Shown: one piece after another, positions 18-25,661 of the stretch
Numbering within the stretch: the stretch's first letter is position 1
Layout of the letters: every line of letters starts with the position of its first letter
Virus record (IMG/VR): IMGVR_UViG_3300038492_000581
Coordinates: 1 to 25,814 of that record
Origin: a virus
Taxonomy: Duplodnaviria; Heunggongvirae; Uroviricota; Caudoviricetes
Length of the DNA stretch: 25,814 nucleotides
Strand: one strand, 5' to 3'
Made by a program: the position numbers and the translations under genes
The notes under the pieces: generated by a model
The model's input: the letters and a program-made list of their open reading frames with translations, nothing else
What the model was told of the DNA's origin: nothing
The model's database searches: none

Positions 18-272
18 CAGGGTGGAGTAAGAGAGTTGAGGGAAGAGACTGGGATTGCAATCGAAGCTTGTAACCTTGTCCACGTTAATAACTACAGTCA
101 GCTCGATCGGAATCCAGGCGAGCGGGCTATTAATATTGTGTATCGCTATACCTTGAGAGGTAATGAGGAAATCAAGGTGGGGGATGACGCTGAAGCTTTT
201 AAGTTTGTTGACGTCAAGGAAGCAGAAGGGTTGGCTTTCGAGGGGTATGACGTGGCAGTGAGGATTCTCTAA
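18..272 (+). CDS. Nudix hydrolase, 5'-truncated
   Basis: The frame reads VRELREETG (the RExxEExG half of the Nudix box) and later GDDAEAFKFV. Stop TAA overlaps the next ATG. Confidence 0.8.
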   Translation, partial: QGGVRELREETGIAIEACNLVHVNNYSQLDRNPGERAINIVYRYTLRGNEEIKVGDDAEAFKFVDVKEAEGLAFEGYDVAVRIL

Positions 273-1228
273 TGAAAAAGATCGCGTACGTAGCGTTGAA
301 GTACGACTATGGAGTTCAAGATAAGGGTTTGTCGTACGAATCGAAGAATCTGGAGCCAGGCTTTCAGGCTTGTGTAGACGAAGGATTGTTTGAATTTAAG
401 TCTTACTATCCGGATGTCGAAGACACAAATTGGAATGATCTGATTTCCAAGATTGTTAGTTATGAGATTGATGCTATTTTTCACGTTGCTTTCAATGAGG
501 ATAAAGATCTTCCCGAGGGTGTTGCCTCGATCGCTTTAAAGAATGATATTCCAGTAATTCAATGGGATTGTGATGCAAGCTGGCGATTCGAAAACTTTAT
601 TAAAGGGCGTAAGAATAGAGTTAGTCACTTTGTCAGCACACACTCCAGTACTCTTGACTGGTACGAAAATAATGGGATGACCGTCATCAAGTCCCAGTGG
701 GCAGGTTCTCCTCTGTACACCAACTTGCCCAATCTTGAGAAGAAGTATGATGTTGGATTCTGTGGACAGAAACACGGAATCAGGGGCGAGATTGTTACGG
801 CAATGCATAATGCCGACATCGATCTTCATATGTTTGGATGGTACTGGGAGGGTTTTAAGAATGGGCATCCTCATACGCCTGAACTATCCGATATGCTGGA
901 CGTACTTCATCGTTCCAAAGTATGTTTGAATATGTCAAACCCTTGGCATGTGGGAACTATGCCGCAAATCAAAGGGCGACACTTTGGTATTCCCAAAGCA
1001 GGCGGATTTCAGATCACCACGCCTGCTGATAATTTGGAAGAGTACTTTGTCTTGGATAAAGAGATAGTGGTTGTAAATGATGTCGATGAGTTAATCGAGA
1101 AGACTCGGTATTATCTTGATCACGCGGACGAAAGATTAGCCATCGCTGAAGCAGGTCATCAGAGAACTATTACTGAGCACACTTGGCCTAATAGAATGCG
1201 ACACATCTTGGAATCAATTGGCCTATGA
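272..1228 (+). CDS. GT-B glycosyltransferase, CgeB/spore-maturation-like (Glyco_trans_1_2 type)
   Basis: C-terminal YDVGFCG...SKVCLN...R-F-x-IPKAGGFQIT...EYF..DKEIVV..DVDELIEK..YYLDH..ER..IAEAG..R...EHTW..R pattern typical of this family. Confidence 0.85.
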   Translation: MKKIAYVALKYDYGVQDKGLSYESKNLEPGFQACVDEGLFEFKSYYPDVEDTNWNDLISKIVSYEIDAIFHVAFNEDKDLPEGVASIALKNDIPVIQWDCDASWRFENFIKGRKNRVSHFVSTHSSTLDWYENNGMTVIKSQWAGSPLYTNLPNLEKKYDVGFCGQKHGIRGEIVTAMHNADIDLHMFGWYWEGFKNGHPHTPELSDMLDVLHRSKVCLNMSNPWHVGTMPQIKGRHFGIPKAGGFQITTPADNLEEYFVLDKEIVVVNDVDELIEKTRYYLDHADERLAIAEAGHQRTITEHTWPNRMRHILESIGL

Positions 1229-1800
1229 TTCGGACACAACTTAGAACGGGTAAGGTGCTGCTTTACCATGAAGGTGCGTTCTATGATCCTCGAAGTTTTC
1301 TTCAGAGTAATAATCGTATCTTTCCGGGCTCTTTCAACCCAGTTCATAATGGGCATATCGCGTGCGGCCAAGGTTGTATTTTTGAGATACCCAGAGCTAA
1401 TTATTACAAAGGTCCAGTGCCAGAAGACAATCTCATTCATCGAATTAAGATGTTGAGTCTTGTTGGAATTCCTGTTCTAATAACTAATGCTTTGAGTTAT
1501 ACGCAGAAAGACGAGACTCTGCGTAAAATTGTCGATCAAGACTACATCTATCGAATTGCCGGAGACACTTGGAATAAGTGCGTGTATCATGACATACAAA
1601 TGTTTGAGGGGGTGGAAGAATCATCATTTGAAGTTTCCCCTGTTGACGGCGAACAAGTTTTGATACCAAGTTTAGATTTGAACTTTAGGATAGTTGATAT
1701 ACCAAGATCCACAGTTCGAAGCACATCAATCAGACAGGCTGACTACAATGATATGCCGGAAGTTGTAGCTCAGTATATCAAAGAAAACAAAGTTTATTAA
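1225..1800 (+). CDS. HxGH-superfamily nucleotidyltransferase (NadD/cytidylyltransferase-like)
   Basis: FPGSFNPVHNGH (HxGH motif), GDT after a beta strand, and C-terminal RSTSIR (SSTxIR-like). ATGA overlap with the GT gene. Confidence 0.65.
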   Translation: MIRTQLRTGKVLLYHEGAFYDPRSFLQSNNRIFPGSFNPVHNGHIACGQGCIFEIPRANYYKGPVPEDNLIHRIKMLSLVGIPVLITNALSYTQKDETLRKIVDQDYIYRIAGDTWNKCVYHDIQMFEGVEESSFEVSPVDGEQVLIPSLDLNFRIVDIPRSTVRSTSIRQADYNDMPEVVAQYIKENKVY

Positions 1801-1801
1801 G

Positions 1802-2131
1802 TTGAGGGCTTGGCAAATGTGTGATTTAAGAAAGATAGCTTCGATATCTGTTTTGGGACAGATTATTCAGGTTGATGTTCCGTTGCGACTCGTGGAGGAA
1901 AACCATTATTTGTCGCCGGGCTTATACAGAAAGCAACTGTCTGGAATTCCTGTAGGAATTCCCTGTTCTACGACCACACAGTATTTTGATGGTAAAGTTT
2001 GGCGTGAAGAAGGTGATGGTTGGGAAGTACATGAATTAATTGTGCCGGCTGAAAATGTCAGAAGAAAATATAATGATCAAGAGATAATAGATGGATTGCG
2101 GGAAGCTCTTTTCAAAATATTGGGAGCATAG
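1802..2131 (+). CDS. Hypothetical protein (possibly continues by +1 frameshift to 2258)
   Basis: 109-aa ORF filling the operon gap. The start is uncertain (TTG 1802 or a nearby ATG). Confidence 0.55.
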   Translation: MRAWQMCDLRKIASISVLGQIIQVDVPLRLVEENHYLSPGLYRKQLSGIPVGIPCSTTTQYFDGKVWREEGDGWEVHELIVPAENVRRKYNDQEIIDGLREALFKILGA

Positions 2132-2258
2132 TCATACCTTTAACAATGAGGAAGATATAAATCAAGATAGTTGTTCTGGGTTCTTTGGACGGCATGGAGA
2201 GATAGCAAGACAGGCATTAAATAAGTTCCATGAGAGTACAACGAAAGGGAATTGTTAA
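2091..2258 (+). CDS. 55-aa ORF (MDCGKLFSKYWEH...GEIARQALNKFHESTTKGNC) or frameshifted C-terminus of the preceding gene
   Basis: Translated by hand; it is below the 60-aa track cutoff. Its TAA (2256-2258) abuts the gmd ATG at 2259. Confidence 0.4.
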   Translation: MDCGKLFSKYWEHSHTFNNEEDINQDSCSGFFGRHGEIARQALNKFHESTTKGNC

Positions 2259-3332
2259 ATGAATTCGAAAACTGCTGTAATAACGGGAGTTACCGGACAA
2301 GACGGAATGTACCTTGCTCACTATCTTCTGTCTTTGGGATATAGGGTAGTTGGCGTAAATCGTAGAACGTCCATGCCAACCGATCAAAGACTGAGAACAT
2401 TACGAGGTAGCCCAAATTTTGTGGTTGTTAGCGGCGATGTGACCGACATTAGTAGCATTCAGTCTGTCATAGAGAAATTTTCTCCGGATGAGCTGTATCA
2501 TTTAGCAGCCCAGTCGCACGTGGGCGAGTCTTGGAACTCTCCTATTTCTACTTCGGATATTACCGGGATAGGGACACTTAACTGTCTGGAAGCCATTCGT
2601 AAGGCCAAGCCGGAGTGTCGGTTCTACTTTGCTGGTAGTAGTGAGCAGTTTGGTAATTCGATCCGAAAGGATTATGTTTCGGAATACGAAGGGTGTAGAT
2701 CAATTGTGCCAATGAAAACTATGGCCGATTTAGAGGATCGTATGCTTAATGAGCGGTCTCCTATGCACCCAGAATCCCCTTACGCAGCAGCGAAGGTATT
2801 CGGGTACAATATGACCCATGTTTATCGTAGATCTTACGACATGTTTGCTTCTTGCGGAATTTTATTTAACCACGAATCGCCTATGAGAGGTGATCAATTT
2901 GTGACCCGGAAGATCACTTTGGGGCTTGCAAATGTACTGGCCGGAAATCAGGATTGTGTGAATCTGGGTAACCTAAGTGCTTGTCGGGACTGGGGTTTTG
3001 CCGGAGATTACGTCAAGGCCATGCACGCCATGCTCCAGCTTGACCATCCCGACGACTTCGTGATCGCTACTGGCGAGACTCACTCTGTGCAAGAATTTGT
3101 TGACATTGCTTCGGATTATATGGGCCTTAATAAGGGTACTATTAACGTGGACCCCAATCTATTCAGGCCGAAGGATGTTGATGTACTGATTGGTGACGCT
3201 TCCAAGGCCAAGAATATTCTGGGATGGGAAGCGACTACTTCGTTCGAAAGTCTGGTACACATGATGTGTGATCATGATAAGGCTTTTGTGAAGGGTCGCC
3301 TGGATATCGCTGATACTTTTTTGGGAGTGTAA
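2259..3332 (+). CDS. gmd: GDP-mannose 4,6-dehydratase
   Basis: TGVTGQDG (GxxGxxG), AAQSHV, SSE, YAAAK (YxxxK), GILFNHESP.RG..FVTRKI, LGNL...RDWG.AGDYV. Carries a ~25-aa insertion after SSEQFG. Confidence 0.95.
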   Translation: MNSKTAVITGVTGQDGMYLAHYLLSLGYRVVGVNRRTSMPTDQRLRTLRGSPNFVVVSGDVTDISSIQSVIEKFSPDELYHLAAQSHVGESWNSPISTSDITGIGTLNCLEAIRKAKPECRFYFAGSSEQFGNSIRKDYVSEYEGCRSIVPMKTMADLEDRMLNERSPMHPESPYAAAKVFGYNMTHVYRRSYDMFASCGILFNHESPMRGDQFVTRKITLGLANVLAGNQDCVNLGNLSACRDWGFAGDYVKAMHAMLQLDHPDDFVIATGETHSVQEFVDIASDYMGLNKGTINVDPNLFRPKDVDVLIGDASKAKNILGWEATTSFESLVHMMCDHDKAFVKGRLDIADTFLGV

Positions 3333-7060: not shown

Positions 7061-8230
7061 GTGAAGGGTAACTACTGGACTGCCGGTCTCGATATCTTTG
7101 GCGAGGGTGTCGACAGCAAAATACCGGATGATGTCGTCGATGTGGCCATCATTGGCGGAGGATTTTCGGGTGCCAGCGTATTCTATCATCTGGGCAACAG
7201 AATGTCTTCTGTTATCATTGATGCTCACCCTCTGTGTGGCATGGATGGATCTTCAAAAGGTCCAGGCATCGTAACATGGATGAATGATTGTTCTATCAGT
7301 AGTGAGGCTTGCCAGTACTCCCTGATGAATAATAGGATGCTTGAAAGGGCCGTCAAATATGATGGGCTCGATTGTAGGTACCATCATGATGGACATGTCT
7401 ATCTTTCTCAGTTAGAGTCGGGGCTTCCGGGATTAGAAGCGGCACTTGCGAACTCAGACATGGCGGAAGCTTCTGAGAATTTCGCAATGCTACCCAGAGA
7501 CGCGATTGTTGGCGGAGTAATGTCTGAAAGTTTTGCAGGCGGGGCCTTTTTGCCATCAGCGTTTGCAGTTAATCCGCACTTACTTGTTAATAGCATGGTA
7601 GTGCAAACAAGAAGTGATAGGAACACAGTTGTTACTGGCAGCATAGTAGAGTGTGTTAATCGGGAAGATAGTATCTTTCGAATAACTCTAAAGGGAGAAC
7701 ATCACATTTTTGCTCGCAAGATAGTGTACTGTCTTGGAGCATACACACCACAATTGGTTCCCGAGACCGAAGATGTTATTGACCTAAAGAGAAATATTTG
7801 TATTGCTACTTCCAAGGTGCATGAACGAATGTTTTTCTCGTGGCCACGCTCTTCGATGTCGGCAGGCTATAAGTGGTATAGAAGCACGAACGGGCGAGTC
7901 CTCTCTGGTTATGCGGATGCATTCACTGGGGAATATGATTCGCCCGCGGTTTATCGTAAGGCCACAACTGATCTCTTTACAACTTTCCCTATAATTGAAG
8001 CCACTATCAAGTATAATTGGGTAAGCTTGTTTGGATCTACAAAGACTGGGCCGCTTGTGGGCCCACTTCCTAACCGGGAAAACGAGTATGTCAGTACGGG
8101 TTACGGAAATAGCTCTCTATCGTATGCATTTTTGAGCGGCTTTATTATCGCCGATCATTTGTTAAACGGCGGGAGTGATTTCCCATACTCTAATGCATTT
8201 AGTCCGGAGGGAAGATTGGATGGGGTTTGA
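7061..8230 (+). CDS. FAD-dependent oxidoreductase, DAO/glycine-oxidase family
   Basis: DVAIIGGGFSGASV (GxGxxG), S.K.PG, VNPHLLV, GPLVG and C-terminal TGYGNSSLSYAFLSG.IIAD. Confidence 0.85.
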   Translation: MKGNYWTAGLDIFGEGVDSKIPDDVVDVAIIGGGFSGASVFYHLGNRMSSVIIDAHPLCGMDGSSKGPGIVTWMNDCSISSEACQYSLMNNRMLERAVKYDGLDCRYHHDGHVYLSQLESGLPGLEAALANSDMAEASENFAMLPRDAIVGGVMSESFAGGAFLPSAFAVNPHLLVNSMVVQTRSDRNTVVTGSIVECVNREDSIFRITLKGEHHIFARKIVYCLGAYTPQLVPETEDVIDLKRNICIATSKVHERMFFSWPRSSMSAGYKWYRSTNGRVLSGYADAFTGEYDSPAVYRKATTDLFTTFPIIEATIKYNWVSLFGSTKTGPLVGPLPNRENEYVSTGYGNSSLSYAFLSGFIIADHLLNGGSDFPYSNAFSPEGRLDGV

Positions 8231-20643: not shown

Positions 20644-21251
20644 TAGCGTGGTGCTACTGGTGATCTCGTCTTGTCAACATGACTATACCCAGATTCATCT
20701 CCAAGCCAGGCTGCACGCACATATTCAGCGTACTTTGGATTTGCCGATTCGGGATCAGGACCAAGACCAGATGTCACCCTATCAACTCCGTCGTGAATTC
20801 CTTGTGCGACGGCATTAATCAGTTCCTTTGTCCTGTCGGACAAAGGAAAAGATCCGTCTTCGTTGAGATTATCTCCGAAGTTCACCTGATCCTCCACCAA
20901 ACGGAGTCCCGCTACGATCGCCTCGCCTGGCACATTGAACTCAGTCAGTACCCGATCCGCAACGTCGCTAAGAATGCCTCCTACAACTGTTACAGCGTCT
21001 TTGTTGGCTGTGTCTTCCAGGGCATTCGCTACCGCCGTCAATATCTCGGCGGATACGTCAGTGCGTTGCAAGAGCTGGGTAGCGGCCACACGAACCCCGG
21101 TCTCAATGTATCCAAGAACGTTGTCGAAACGATCCTGATCCATATTCTCGATCAATTCGACACCATCCCCATTGCCAGTCGAGACGCATCCCGGCCCGAA
21201 AACGAATACGACTGCCAAAATGGCACACATTACATTAAACTTCATGGTCAA
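20643..21251 (-). CDS. Putative lipoprotein
   Basis: MTMKF-hydrophobic stretch-GPG/C signal followed by an acidic helical domain. GAGG RBS. Confidence 0.55.
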   Translation of the reverse strand: MTMKFNVMCAILAVVFVFGPGCVSTGNGDGVELIENMDQDRFDNVLGYIETGVRVAATQLLQRTDVSAEILTAVANALEDTANKDAVTVVGGILSDVADRVLTEFNVPGEAIVAGLRLVEDQVNFGDNLNEDGSFPLSDRTKELINAVAQGIHDGVDRVTSGLGPDPESANPKYAEYVRAAWLGDESGYSHVDKTRSPVAPR

Positions 21252-21907
21252 TCCTCTTTTCCCTTGATGTTTGCATTACTGCCGACCGCCAAATCGTGGC
21301 CGCCAGTTCGGGCGGCACCATACGCTGCCCGTTGTTTAGCATTCATCATTCGAATGTTGGCCTTGCAACTTCGACACGTTCTATACATAGTCTTGCCATC
21401 ATCATTCGACCAAGGCTTCGATTTGTTCGGATGAGAGCAATCATTTCTGGCCACAGTCTTAAGTCGAGGACCAGGTCTTTTGTCTGGATCGGCCACAGGC
21501 TCGTCGCCCATAGACTGAGCAGATTGAGAACGCTGGTGCTCCTCTCTTTCTCTCATTTTTTGAGCTACAAAGGCTTCGTCATCATCGATTTCTGCCCTTG
21601 AAAATTGCTGTCTGCGTTCCGCAGCAGTTTGAAAACTTTCATCATGTTCCTGAATTCGAACAGGTTTCTCTTGGTACGGTAATGAAGGGCTGGTAACAAT
21701 TTGTAATGCAAGATTGATGCCATTTTCAAGTACTTCAGTGCTGGCAATTTGAGTCATAAGCCTTTCAATGCAATCACGACAAACTTCATGCTCTTGTTCT
21801 TTTCTGGCCTGGGGCCTCTTTATCTTGATAACACCCAAGGACTTAAGATCATCAGTCTCTCGACCGCAGAGATCACATTCGATTATGGTTACTGTTCTTG
21901 TTGCCAT
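21248..21907 (-). CDS. Hypothetical protein with Cys/His zinc-binding motifs
   Basis: CDLC...CRDC at the N-terminus and CSH...CRSC at the C-terminus. Confidence 0.65.
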   Translation of the reverse strand: MATRTVTIIECDLCGRETDDLKSLGVIKIKRPQARKEQEHEVCRDCIERLMTQIASTEVLENGINLALQIVTSPSLPYQEKPVRIQEHDESFQTAAERRQQFSRAEIDDDEAFVAQKMREREEHQRSQSAQSMGDEPVADPDKRPGPRLKTVARNDCSHPNKSKPWSNDDGKTMYRTCRSCKANIRMMNAKQRAAYGAARTGGHDLAVGSNANIKGKED

Positions 21908-21921
21908 AATTATTACTACAC

Positions 21922-22572
21922 TTAATCGTTTGAGTAACGTTTCAATATTTCGGCTATGAGTGGGTTACGCTGTATGTCTTGGACAGTATCCATATTGACT
22001 ATACCTACGCCATCCATGCTGTAAAGTCGATTTATAGCGTCACTTAGACCGCTATTACCGGGCTCAATATCGCATTGGTCAAGATCTCCTGCCACAATCA
22101 ACTTACAGTGATCTGCCACACGAGTAAAAAGCATCTTCATAGCTTCACCATCTCGTGGCACGTTTTGTGCTTCCTCAACGATTACCACACAATTTGAAAA
22201 CGATCGTCCGCGACACATACTCAGAACAGTAAATTCCACATACTCTTTTACGAATCTTTTGACTTCTTCTTCGGTCATATGCATTTTACGAAGATTGTCT
22301 TTAATCGACTCTAAGTATGGAGAAACTTTTTCTTCCAATGTGCCTGGAAGAGAGCCCAGCCTCTCTCCTGTATTGCTGGGCATGTAGGGCCGAATAATTA
22401 TCAGCCGCTTGAACTTTTTGTTTTTCAAACAGAGCTGAACAGCCTTACTAAGTGCAAGGTATGTTTTACCAGTTCCAGGATAACCTGTGCAGATTGTGAT
22501 TGTGTTCTCGTCGATCGAATTAAGGTATTCTTCCTGGCCCCAACTACGTGGTTCTGCGGGCCTAAAACTCAT
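21922..22572 (-). CDS. phoH: PhoH-family ATPase
   Basis: GYPGTGKT, IIRP, LGSLPGTLEEK..PY, RGRSF, IVEEAQN and GDLDQCD. AGGAGG RBS. Confidence 0.93.
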   Translation of the reverse strand: MSFRPAEPRSWGQEEYLNSIDENTITICTGYPGTGKTYLALSKAVQLCLKNKKFKRLIIIRPYMPSNTGERLGSLPGTLEEKVSPYLESIKDNLRKMHMTEEEVKRFVKEYVEFTVLSMCRGRSFSNCVVIVEEAQNVPRDGEAMKMLFTRVADHCKLIVAGDLDQCDIEPGNSGLSDAINRLYSMDGVGIVNMDTVQDIQRNPLIAEILKRYSND

Positions 22573-22580
22573 TCCTTCTT

Positions 22581-23171
22581 CTACCTCCTGCCATTACGGC
22601 GACGTACCCAAGCTAAAGATTCTGACGGCTGATTATAAGACTTGTGAAACTGCTTACGTTTGCCGCCTTTTTGAGAAGCTTTTGCAACCAGTTTCTCAAG
22701 CTGATCGATCAAAAGCACACCATTAAGATGGTCGATTTCATGCATAACGGCTCGTGCCATCAAGCCAGAGAAATCTTTCTCCATCTTGTTACCTTTGGTA
22801 TCGAAGTACTCGATTTTAACATTTTTTGGTCGGGGGACTCGAAGAAAAACACCAGGTAGGGACAGACATCCCTCCTCTTTCTTCGAAACTTCTCGGCTTC
22901 GCGTCTTCACTTTGGGATTGATGAATACCTCAATATCACCATTCGGAAGCTGTAGATTAAAGATGCGACGAGGATGTCCAATTTGCACAGCAGCTAAACC
23001 AACGGCACTATTTGTTTCGATTTCTCTAAGAAGAACTGTATTCATGTCAAGAATAGCAGCTTTATCTTCTTCCGTAAGAGGAAATTCTACTTCTTTAGAG
23101 CGAAGACGAAGAAGAGGGCCAAGTTCGGGATCTGCTTGAGTGATAATTTTGCGTTCGATGATTTCGTCCAT
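22581..23171 (-). CDS. def: Peptide deformylase
   Basis: GLAAVQIG, EGCLS and HEIDHLNG all intact. The likely start is ATG 23171, just after the map stop. Confidence 0.95.
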   Translation of the reverse strand: MDEIIERKIITQADPELGPLLRLRSKEVEFPLTEEDKAAILDMNTVLLREIETNSAVGLAAVQIGHPRRIFNLQLPNGDIEVFINPKVKTRSREVSKKEEGCLSLPGVFLRVPRPKNVKIEYFDTKGNKMEKDFSGLMARAVMHEIDHLNGVLLIDQLEKLVAKASQKGGKRKQFHKSYNQPSESLAWVRRRNGRR

Positions 23172-23176
23172 GATAT

Positions 23177-23962
23177 TTAACAGAGAATCTCTGCTCCTTT
23201 TTCGGTTACGAGAACGGTGTGTTCGTGGTGGCATGCGAGAGATCCATCTTTAGTGCGGATCGTCCAGCCGTCTTCATCGATGGTGGTCTCCGTTTTTCCA
23301 AAGGTGCAGACCGGCTCAACGCAAATTATATCGCCCGCGGTCAGCTTTGTCAAGGCGTATTTCTCGCGAAGACATTCGTAAGCTACACCAGACAGACCTT
23401 TTGGGTACGAATGATGTATGCTCGGCTTTTGGTGAATTGACTTTCCAATACCGTGACCAGTAAATTGAGTCATGACGTTCAAACTATTTCGATCGGCAAT
23501 TAGCTTTCCAATATCCGCTAATACATCTAAAGTAACTCCAGATTCAATCGTATCCACGATTTCTTCACATAGATGTTGAGTTCGAGCTATTAACTGCTCA
23601 GCTTTTGAGTCTGCAACAATAGAGTACCCTTCTTCCCTGTATTGTCCTACAAGAATACTTCGTGCGGCGTCAACATTCCATCCGTCGACAGAAACTCCCA
23701 TGTCGATGGTAAGGAGGTCGCCACGCTTCAGCTTGTAACCATTTGGTATACCGTGAACAGCGACATCGTTAACTGACATGCATGCGTTTGCTGGATAGTC
23801 TAAATAACCATTAAAGCAAGGTATTCCACCCTGTTTTTCTATGAGACTGCCAACAAATTGATCCAATTTGGTCAGGCTACATCCTTCATGGGCCAACCTT
23901 AACGTTCTCTCCATCACATGCTTGTGGATCTTGGCGGCTTCTTTGGTCTTCTCTATACTCAT
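23177..23962 (-). CDS. map: Methionine aminopeptidase type I
   Basis: SVND.AVHGIP, IDMG...DGWNVDAARS, GHGIG..IH..P, EP and HEHTV; all five metal ligands are present. Confidence 0.93.
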   Translation of the reverse strand: MSIEKTKEAAKIHKHVMERTLRLAHEGCSLTKLDQFVGSLIEKQGGIPCFNGYLDYPANACMSVNDVAVHGIPNGYKLKRGDLLTIDMGVSVDGWNVDAARSILVGQYREEGYSIVADSKAEQLIARTQHLCEEIVDTIESGVTLDVLADIGKLIADRNSLNVMTQFTGHGIGKSIHQKPSIHHSYPKGLSGVAYECLREKYALTKLTAGDIICVEPVCTFGKTETTIDEDGWTIRTKDGSLACHHEHTVLVTEKGAEILC

Positions 23963-24530
23963 TCACGAGTTCCTTGACTTTTTGCCAGTGCGGCAAAACT
24001 TGTCTGTATCCTCTGCGTCCCGTACGAAGAAGATATGATGGATGATATGTGACAATTGTTGGGTATTTTTGTCCGTTGATGTTTAACCCAAGATCAGTCT
24101 CAAAGAGTTTGAATAAGGCTCCTTTTATTTCGGAACCCACTATAGTGGTGGCAGCCATCTTGCCAAGCAACACAATAAATTTGGGCTGTAGCTGCTCGAT
24201 TTGTAAATGAAGACGCCATCGACAAGCATCCATCTCTTCTATTTGAGGATCACGATTGTTTGGTGGTCTACAAAGAACCGTGTTCGTGATGTAAATCTCT
24301 TCTCTTGTTACACCAACAAAATCAAGTATCTTGTTAAGCTTCTCGCCTGCTTGCCCAACGAAGGGCTCGCCGCCCTTATCCTCATTTTCGCCTGGTGCTT
24401 CGCCCACTATCATGAAAATTGGGTTGTGGCTGCCCGTACCAAAGACAATTTGACTACGTTCGTGACAAAGCCCGCAATCCTGGCAGTCCGCCAAACCTTT
24501 TTCTGCGACATCGAGTATTTTATTACGCAT
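23886..24530 (-). CDS. Uracil-DNA glycosylase family 4
   Basis: CQDCGLC, VGEAPGENED..GEPFVGQAG, NTVLCRPPNNRDP..EE..AC and TYHPSYLLR. The C-terminal tail overlaps map by 77 nt. Confidence 0.92.
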   Translation of the reverse strand: MRNKILDVAEKGLADCQDCGLCHERSQIVFGTGSHNPIFMIVGEAPGENEDKGGEPFVGQAGEKLNKILDFVGVTREEIYITNTVLCRPPNNRDPQIEEMDACRWRLHLQIEQLQPKFIVLLGKMAATTIVGSEIKGALFKLFETDLGLNINGQKYPTIVTYHPSYLLRTGRRGYRQVLPHWQKVKELVNEYREDQRSRQDPQACDGENVKVGP

Positions 24531-25479
24531 TGTTGTGCCCTACAAAGAATGACTCTGCCCAGTTTGTAGCGTCCCTATTTTTTCTAAGGCAGTAGTCTCC
24601 AAAATGAATTGTGTCGGCAAGATTACACATGTGAGCAACTATCTTGCCTTCCAAAGTTTTCATGTTCGAATAAGGGTTGCAGATGTTTTCTAATGCCTGT
24701 TTCTTGGATTCGGGCACATCGATATTCTCATTGCTGTCGGCTTGCAGAAGTACGCCGTGCAATATCCTGAATGATGCACGATACAATCCCGTCATTTCAT
24801 AGGCATCAATCGGTCTAAGTATATTGCCTTCGAAGTATGTAGTTGAGAACCAGCCTATGTTTCTGAAGATGCATCCAGCGACGATTAGAGACTCGTTAAT
24901 CTCGGCATCTACTTCGCCAAAACTTGCAATGGCAGCCTTAGCTGCACGTATTGTGTGAACAGTGTGTATAAGAAGTCCGCCGCGGCAGGCAAGTGGTCCG
25001 TTTAAGCCATAGGGAGATGTGCCAAGCATTACTTCGGCGAGTTCAAGCTGTTCTTCAGCGATTCGAAGAATATCTCTGTAGTCTGGATCATCTATTTCGT
25101 CAATGAATCGGCGGATTTCCTCGACGTAGAATTTGATTTCTGCGGAAGAAGGGCCTCGGACATAGTCCGTTATGTTTTCAGGTTCACCCTTATAAGGTTT
25201 TGCACCTTCTTTCTGTACCGTGAGCTGAAGTTCGCCATTGTATGTGGTAACATCGGCACGCATTCTGACAAATCGTCCGGCAGACATGCTACTGCCGTGT
25301 GGCCGCAGAGTAAGGCCCCATACAACTCCCGAGATTTTACCTGTAACGTCTTGTGCGACGAATCGCACGAATGGAGTTTTGCCTTTGGGTGTAAACGACT
25401 TAGCTTCCGAGATCATGAAGATTTGCTCGAACGTTCTACCCTCGGCAAGTTGATTGATGGGCGTGTATTGATCGATCAA
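24523..25479 (-). CDS. YhaM/Cbf1-like OB-fold + HD-fold protein with lost catalytic residues
   Basis: OB module (PF..F..QD.TG.I....W...V.....DV..Y.G.LQL) followed by GGLLIH and AGCIFRNIG in place of AG.ILHDIG. Likely TTG start at 25479 (TTGA overlap). Confidence 0.75.
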   Translation of the reverse strand: MIDQYTPINQLAEGRTFEQIFMISEAKSFTPKGKTPFVRFVAQDVTGKISGVVWGLTLRPHGSSMSAGRFVRMRADVTTYNGELQLTVQKEGAKPYKGEPENITDYVRGPSSAEIKFYVEEIRRFIDEIDDPDYRDILRIAEEQLELAEVMLGTSPYGLNGPLACRGGLLIHTVHTIRAAKAAIASFGEVDAEINESLIVAGCIFRNIGWFSTTYFEGNILRPIDAYEMTGLYRASFRILHGVLLQADSNENIDVPESKKQALENICNPYSNMKTLEGKIVAHMCNLADTIHFGDYCLRKNRDATNWAESFFVGHNNA

Positions 25480-25661
25480 CGCTGAAACCTTTTCTTGGGC
25501 CCCGAAACACTTCGATTTTCTCGCTGCTTGCACTCAGAACATTTTGCGATTCGTCGCACAATAAGGTCTACTTCTTCGTATGCTCCAATAGATATTCTTT
25601 CGTCGCTACCAAGGTATTTTGCATAACAAGTTTTGCACTCAATTATCTGTACTGTTATCAT
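25476..25661 (-). CDS. Small zinc-ribbon protein
   Basis: CKTC...CSEC, coupled on both sides by 4-nt overlaps. Confidence 0.65.
   Translation of the reverse strand: MITVQIIECKTCYAKYLGSDERISIGAYEEVDLIVRRIAKCSECKQRENRSVSGPKKRFQR

Follow-up and report, generated by a model that had tools for sequence, protein, structure and literature searches.

Both enzymes of N-terminal methionine excision, a methionine aminopeptidase (MAP, gene map) and a peptide deformylase (PDF, gene def), are encoded by adjacent genes in the DNA stretch analysed here, termed the window, which is 25,814 nucleotides (nt) long and represents the first 25.8 kb of the 109,785-bp IMG/VR virus record IMGVR_UViG_3300038492_000581, estimated to be 64% complete. 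The gene pair and its junction comprise the following elements:

23177..23962, minus strand: map, type Ia methionine aminopeptidase of 261 residues, assigned from Pfam, NCBIfam, the AlphaFold2 (AF2) model, Foldseek and the catalytic residues
23172..23176, minus strand: 5-nt spacer from the map stop to the def start (ATATC on the coding strand), defined by the sequence and by the junctions of relatives
22581..23171, minus strand: def, type 1 peptide deformylase of 196 residues, assigned from Pfam, PHROG, NCBIfam, the sequence motifs and the AF2 model

The sequence and its translations bear out the description in an earlier note on this DNA, according to which map and def are co-oriented and 5 nt apart: map ends with TAA at 23177-23179 and def starts with an ATG at 23171. 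The longest open reading frame (ORF) for def, which starts at 23234 and would encode 217 residues, is probably wrong, and the start at 23171 is favoured because it fits the N-termini of relatives and because the 196-residue form is on record in the public protein collection. For map, the form on record in that collection has 245 residues, starts at M17 and misses part of the first helix. Position 23962 is the better start, since the family model and the predicted fold both span residues 3-23. Read from this position, map shares 77 nt (23886-23962) with the upstream uracil-DNA glycosylase (UDG) gene, the two being read in different frames; in relatives the UDG/map overlap is about 14 nt.

The MAP stop and the PDF start overlap in most relatives, as ATGA in five related loci (L009, L011, L013, L015 and L140) and by other short overlaps in L141 and L143. 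Three further relatives carry 340-690 nt extra between MAP and PDF (L008:4810-5403; L018:3665-4423; L021:3771-3962), and the ORFs inserted there gave no Pfam match in the two loci tested (L008 and L018); the tight coupling may be interrupted there by small genes that are mobile or specific to the lineage. A perfect sigma-70 consensus (TTGACA-17 nt-TATAAT) is located inside map, at 23325-23353 on the minus strand and 148 nt before the map stop; no other site in the 109.8-kb contig matches at 12/12 positions, the chance expectation being about 0.1 per contig. The consensus was rejected as an internal promoter for def and probably arose by chance, relatives lacking the site at the homologous position. 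Several relatives display 9-11/12 matches about 42 nt further downstream.

Sequence signatures and predicted folds of MAP and PDF

The MAP sequence matches Pfam Peptidase_M24 (PF00557, E = 1.5e-32) and scores 191 bits against NCBIfam TIGR00500, the type I methionyl aminopeptidase model, for which the equivalog cut-off is 171.35. The score against the type II model, 64.6 bits, is far under its cut-off of 222.65. Alignment to solved MAPs identified the metal ligands D87, D98, H170, E216 and E247 and the catalytic histidines H70 and H177, and all seven residues are invariant in 15/15 members of the phage lineage described below. The residues aligned with the methionine pocket of the solved enzymes, F50, Y53, C61 and W233, are likewise invariant in the lineage. 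The AF2 model of MAP, with a predicted local distance difference test (pLDDT) score of 96.2, displays the pita-bread fold and superposes on solved type I MAPs from E. coli and P. aeruginosa with Foldseek template modelling (TM) scores of 0.84-0.87. There is no N-terminal extension of the type Ib/Ic kind, as the alignment begins at residue 3, and no insert of about 60 residues such as that of type II enzymes. By score, residues and fold the protein thus passes as a type I methionine aminopeptidase (M24A), and the corresponding activity is predicted. The fold, the ligands and a similar length are shared with the bacterial type Ia enzymes (MEROPS M24A; E. coli Map, PDB codes 1MAT and 2MAT; P. aeruginosa, PDB code 4FO8), from which the window MAP differs in being phage-encoded, in an identity of 36% or less, in a 13-residue helical insert and in adjoining def. 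PHROGs holds no MAP family, and the best match in that collection is partial and to a family of unknown function.

The insert is the only additional element of the MAP fold. The segment between H177 and E216 comprises exactly 38 residues in 15/15 lineage MAPs, whereas in 80 bacterial MAPs its length has a median of 25 and does not exceed 30. The 13 additional residues (approximately 190-203) are modelled as a confident helix spanning 192-203, at a site that is presumably different from that of the type II insert. In a viral MAP outside the lineage (L031, IMGVR_UViG_3300025326_000150), which has no neighbouring PDF, the same H177-E216 segment is 45 residues long, suggesting that this surface site received an insertion a second time and independently.

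The PDF sequence matches Pfam PF01327 (Pep_deformylase; E = 8e-40, 136 bits against a cut-off of 22.8), NCBIfam TIGR00079 (111.1 bits, cut-off 103.95) and phrog_2890. The three deformylase motifs, GLAAVQ, EGCLS and HEIDH, are intact by alignment to solved structures. The catalytic residues are invariant in the 15 lineage members, the second motif reading EACLS in most relatives. The statement in the earlier note that all catalytic motifs are intact in both enzymes therefore holds, and extends to a divergent lineage. In the AF2 model the PDF core has pLDDT values above 90 and is followed by a helix, residues 154-180, along which pLDDT falls from 91 to 55, and by a second basic C-terminal helix, residues 184-194, of lower confidence. 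The C-terminal element of the model is thus an α-helix, as in type 1 deformylases, and not the β-strand of type 2.

A basic C-terminal extension of 48 residues with a net charge of +9 follows HEIDH in the window PDF; the corresponding segment of the lineage PDFs ranges from 46 to 58 residues with net charges of +9 to +16. It comprises 12 residues in cyanophage S-SRM01 and 30-38 in the PDFs of the cultured phages CcrColossus, Gurke, Cr30 and DLP_6, and the median over the PDF homologues retrieved is 34. The bacterial type 1B enzymes (E. coli Def, PDB code 1BS4; T. maritima, PDB code 1LME) have the three motifs and the C-terminal α-helix in common with the window PDF, which differs from them in its longer basic tail, its second predicted helix and its map-linked gene. 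The PDFs of Synechococcus phage S-SSM7 (PDB code 3UWA) and Vibrio phage Vp16 resemble it in being phage-borne, with intact motifs, and in belonging to phrog_2890. They lack a C-terminal helix (PMC3660681), in contrast with the extended helix and tail found here, and the window PDF falls outside this C-terminally truncated marine viral class because 48 residues follow HEIDH. Closer in this respect are the PDFs of large cultured phages (Caulobacter phages CcrColossus and Cr30, Brevundimonas phage Gurke and Stenotrophomonas phage DLP_6), which are 34-40% identical to the window PDF and have a basic C-terminal helix, with a tail 10-25 residues shorter than that of the lineage. The sequence and the model suggest an enzyme resembling bacterial type 1B deformylases with an extended tail, and deformylase activity is predicted.

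These surface features could also be read as a sign that one or both proteins are catalytically dead or moonlighting scaffolds, for example ribosome binders that displace host factors from the exit tunnel. The highly basic PDF tail, the extra surface helix on MAP and the long branches of the window copies would agree with such a role. The invariance of the metal ligands and catalytic residues would be unexpected if catalysis were dispensable, and makes this reading very improbable.

A conserved gene block in an uncultured phage lineage

The record represents an uncultured aquatic phage with a genome of about 170 kb. A large terminase (TerL) and a portal are encoded on it, together with a ribonucleotide reductase (RNR), a thymidylate synthase, a dUTPase, an endonuclease, RNA ligases, a Thg1-like enzyme, NAMPT, a DNA ligase and approximately 24 tRNA genes. 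The tRNA genes, the RNA ligases and the Thg1-like enzyme indicate a phage that invests in translation. As its TerL shares no more than 27% identity with that of any phage in GenBank, the phage has no cultured relative. The sequence is present in two DNA runs of one aquatic-metagenome study, and no RNA run is listed. The contig gave no match to Formyl_trans_N (fmt), to PTH2 or to RF-1, which at about 64% completeness does not establish their absence.

As map and def are universal in bacteria, and as many MAP matches among GenBank "phage" records look like bacterial contamination, the block might be thought to be of cellular origin, through mis-binning of a bacterial fragment or a chimeric assembly, a concern raised in the earlier note. 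The evidence does not support it: the 109.8-kb record also encodes TerL and portal, the GC content of map (45.2%) and def (43.3%) matches that of the contig (45.2%), the codon usage of the pair is near that of the terminase, portal and RNR genes (cosine 0.915), and synteny is kept in viral-type relatives, in which the block recurs as described below. Together with the separate clade formed by the lineage MAPs and the lack of linkage at bacterial map loci, these data leave a cellular or chimeric origin extremely unlikely.

The genes flanking the pair, which form a block with it, are the following:

24523..25533, minus strand: YhaM-like OB-fold protein of 336 residues; weak PF01336 match, and 44 bits against the YhaM model NF010007, under its cut-off
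23886..24530, minus strand: family-4 UDG; PF03167, E = 1e-33; TIGR00758, 162 bits against a cut-off of 125
21922..22572, minus strand: PhoH-like ATPase, downstream of def; PF02562, E = 2.4e-54; phrog_170
21248..21907, minus strand: conserved protein of 219 residues, the last gene of the block, with only a weak DUF6221 match

The YhaM-like protein begins with an OB fold and weakly resembles the 3'-5' exoribonuclease YhaM, and its gene is the first of the block, upstream of UDG-MAP-PDF-PhoH, in the 15 lineage members and in the 16 loci retrieved with it as bait. UDG keeps its position in relatives, and PhoH follows def in every relative with downstream sequence, in three cases behind an extra ORF or spacer. 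Homologues of the 219-residue protein occupy the same position in most relatives. The module is probably co-transcribed with its neighbours, since these nucleotide-metabolism and repair genes lie on one strand with minimal gaps.

The closest MAP homologues are 38-47% identical and are located on contigs of 102-173 kb, where the gene order is sigma factor, OB-fold protein, UDG, MAP, PDF and PhoH. Searching IMG/VR with an alignment of MAPs retrieved 21 loci, 10 of which contain the whole block, as does L008, found earlier with the single MAP protein. To avoid circularity, a second IMG/VR search was baited with the YhaM-like protein, independently of MAP; YhaM-like-UDG-MAP-PDF-PhoH was found in this order on 16/16 contigs, five of them new. 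A profile search of 1.84 billion representatives identified approximately 35 clusters (50% identity) that outscore ordinary bacterial MAPs. Among four of the more distant clusters inspected, three show the MAP-PDF-PhoH context, while the contig of the fourth ends inside the gene after MAP. In total the MAP-PDF pair was found on 23 contigs, some of them near-duplicates, of viral type and up to 183 kb long. A distant relative (L143:4067-5777) is missing UDG, its OB-fold protein being followed directly by MAP-PDF-PhoH, and the invariant core of the block is accordingly MAP-PDF-PhoH.

Identities across the 15 lineage members are 32-49% for MAP and 36-55% for PDF, with medians given as 49% and 55%, and the invariance of the catalytic residues at such low identity points to long purifying selection. 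MAP and PDF distances correlate with each other (Mantel r = 0.875; 0/2000 permutations reach that value) and also with those of neighbouring genes. This correlation fits joint vertical descent, with shared ancestry alone giving much of it. The module is thus fixed throughout a phage lineage and is not an accident of one contig.

A tree of 101 MAPs groups the 15 lineage MAPs in one clade with an SH-aLRT support of 99 and a long stem, and the six other viral MAPs fall outside it. Within the tree no supported bacterial sister of the lineage MAPs was found, their placement near Verrucomicrobiota and Kiritimatiellota being weak (73). The best cellular identities, 36% or less, are scattered over many phyla. 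On this evidence no donor or host can be named.

The 80 nearest bacterial map loci include none with def within 3 kb, in agreement with the remark in the earlier note that the two genes are unlinked in most bacteria, and no def was found within 3-5 kb of the other viral MAP loci. The usual partner of def in bacteria is fmt. As these bacterial and other viral map loci have no nearby def, the adjacency was apparently assembled within the phage lineage and not imported as a unit. The clade, the synteny and the correlated divergence would fit a single ancient acquisition and vertical inheritance thereafter.

Predicted role in N-terminal processing of phage proteins

Few viral auxiliary genes are as abundant as those for phage deformylases, the role of which is still debated. 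Searches of GenBank identified 170 phage records matching PDF and 35 matching MAP, most of the latter having the appearance of bacterial contamination. Apparently real phage MAPs include those of a 595-kb uncultured phage and of Vibrio phage V6Aob. The two match lists share only one genuine phage record, in which the genes are unlinked. No def was found within 4-5 kb of MAP at three GenBank phage MAP loci inspected, and no annotated MAP adjoins def in five cultured PDF phages. CcrColossus, Cr30, Gurke and DLP_6 are large, tRNA-rich phages, with tRNA clusters beside def in CcrColossus and Gurke, and in none of the four does a MAP adjoin def. A MAP beside the def of S-SSM7 or Vp16 is not mentioned in the accessible portions of PMC3660681 and PMC5591237, a comparison drawn from papers and not from genomes.

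The closest parallel in gene content is V6Aob (PV454620.1, L121), an isolated Vibrio harveyi phage with a 98.7-kb genome, which encodes a type I MAP and a PDF. Its two genes lie in phage context (DNA ligase, baseplate genes) and about 13 kb apart, unlike the adjacent pair of the window. Its MAP is only about 32% identical to the window MAP, and V6Aob falls outside the lineage. A search for a paper on V6Aob found none. Full-text searching, together with the accessible part of a jumbo-phage genomics review, gave no description of a phage MAP-PDF pair, most subscription journals lying beyond this coverage. The claim in the earlier note that no characterised phage carries both enzymes as an operon thus stands as regards the literature found and the linkage, while V6Aob shows that both enzymes can occur, unlinked, in one phage. 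As to the alternative that the pair is already common and described in phages, it is common in this uncultured lineage, and no published description was found in the literature covered. The refuting conditions of the note that could be examined thus came out in favour of its interpretation.

The data are best explained if map and def are working phage copies of both enzymes of N-terminal methionine excision, co-expressed from one transcript and adding processing capacity to the infected cell, an interpretation to which we assign a probability of roughly 75%. According to this proposal, PDF would deformylate nascent chains on the host ribosome, and the type Ia MAP would then remove the methionine where the second residue is small. 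Translational coupling of map and def, indicated by the 5-nt gap here and by the overlapping codons of relatives, would cause both activities to rise together. The likely benefits would be a greater capacity for processing while phage proteins are made in a burst and, secondly, independence from the amount or state of the host enzymes. The benefits suggested in the earlier note, namely higher maturation throughput, an altered N-degron fate and inhibitor bypass, are hypotheses. The long basic C-terminal helix and tail of PDF would probably anchor the enzyme near the ribosomal exit tunnel, as proposed for the shorter helix of E. coli PDF.

MAP is inactive on a nascent chain until PDF has removed the formyl group, both steps being co-translational at the ribosomal exit (PMC3660681). 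Because MAP is blocked until deformylation, a phage that adds MAP needs PDF too, which would explain the tight coupling of the genes. Phage PDFs are active enzymes for which support of protein maturation during infection has been proposed, and the C-terminal helix of type 1 PDF is the proposed ribosome dock in E. coli (Bingel-Erlenmeyer 2008, cited in PMC3660681). In addition, cos-type Streptococcus phages need the host MAP for a late lytic step, a single MAP mutation conferring resistance (PMC6761271).

Several observations weigh against this explanation. With a branch of 1.32 changes per column, the longest in the lineage, the window MAP is its most divergent member, and the window PDF tail departs from the lineage consensus. 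Among characterised MAPs no counterpart of the insert is known. A Shine-Dalgarno sequence at normal distance before def was not found, the nearest candidate (AGGAG) lying more than 20 nt upstream, so that efficient translation of def would need coupling or reinitiation. Finally, only about 64% of the genome is represented in the contig.

The long MAP branch and the divergent PDF tail make an altered specificity possible in this phage. More generally, both enzymes may be active, with MAP, PDF or both specialised for a narrow set of phage or host proteins, for example a virion protein that needs a free N-terminus. Fixation of the 13-residue insert in the lineage MAPs, its absence from the 80 bacterial MAPs and the long stem of the clade would agree with specialisation, as would the preference of the S-SSM7 PDF for D1-type N-termini (PMC3660681) and the observation that loss of the Streptococcus MAP blocks a late phage step and not general protein synthesis (PMC6761271). 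However, the methionine-pocket residues are invariant and the active sites look standard. A small second residue is present in approximately 47% of the crude ORF calls on the contig, compared with a background of 38%, which would make many phage proteins ordinary MAP substrates; since the start sites are crude, this census does not discriminate between the two readings. On balance we regard narrow specialisation as rather unlikely.

A different advantage would arise if the pair maintained methionine excision in the presence of natural PDF or MAP inhibitors produced by competitors, under host defence or during the phage's own shut-off of the host. Accessory PDFs on mobile elements lower susceptibility to actinonin, natural PDF inhibitors are apparently widespread (PMC12690207), and mutation of the host MAP is a route to phage resistance (PMC6761271). 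Yet the sequence gives no sign of inhibitor insensitivity, nor are genes for inhibitors or defence linked to the pair, whose neighbours (UDG, PhoH and the YhaM-like protein) belong to DNA and RNA metabolism. Such a bypass, which would explain selection and not mechanism and is compatible with added processing capacity, appears distinctly unlikely as the main role of the pair.

A bolder proposal is that MAP and PDF, perhaps with PhoH, are phage-specific ribosome exit-site factors with their own docking mode, conferred by the extended basic tail of PDF and the additional helix of MAP, possibly a physical pair, which outcompete or replace host PDF, MAP and trigger factor. If this were so, nascent phage chains would be channelled through both steps and shielded from formylmethionine-dependent degradation, and the phage would be immune to interference with methionine excision by the host or by competitors. 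The proposal is considered improbable. A predicted complex of MAP and PDF, for which a control scored higher, speaks neither for nor against a physical pair.

Returning to added processing capacity as the preferred interpretation, the pair extends the known habit of phages of bringing their own deformylase and introduces no new mechanism, both enzymes being textbook ones. The constant position of the next enzyme of the pathway beside the deformylase argues for completed N-terminal processing of phage proteins as the selected function, and against deformylation as only a side effect. The pair also fits the experimental evidence that phages can depend on the host MAP. The lineage further provides natural variants for studying docking on the ribosome, its MAP having an additional helix and its PDF a basic tail of unusual length.

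Two other features of the record were observed. One of its tRNA genes has a CAU anticodon (L005:6835-6906; contig positions approximately 69,835-69,906, minus strand) and displays a C1-U72 mismatch atop the acceptor stem, and bacterial initiator tRNAs typically have a mismatch at 1:72. The anticodon stem of this tRNA lacks three consecutive G-C pairs, and initiator, elongator Met and Ile2 tRNAs are all candidates. On the plus strand of the window, positions 272-3332 and 7061-8230 contain a nucleotide-sugar module (glycosyltransferase-like, cytidylyltransferase-like and epimerase/dehydratase proteins) and a DAO-family FAD oxidoreductase, the gene of the latter being located directly upstream of the ribonucleotide reductase gene.

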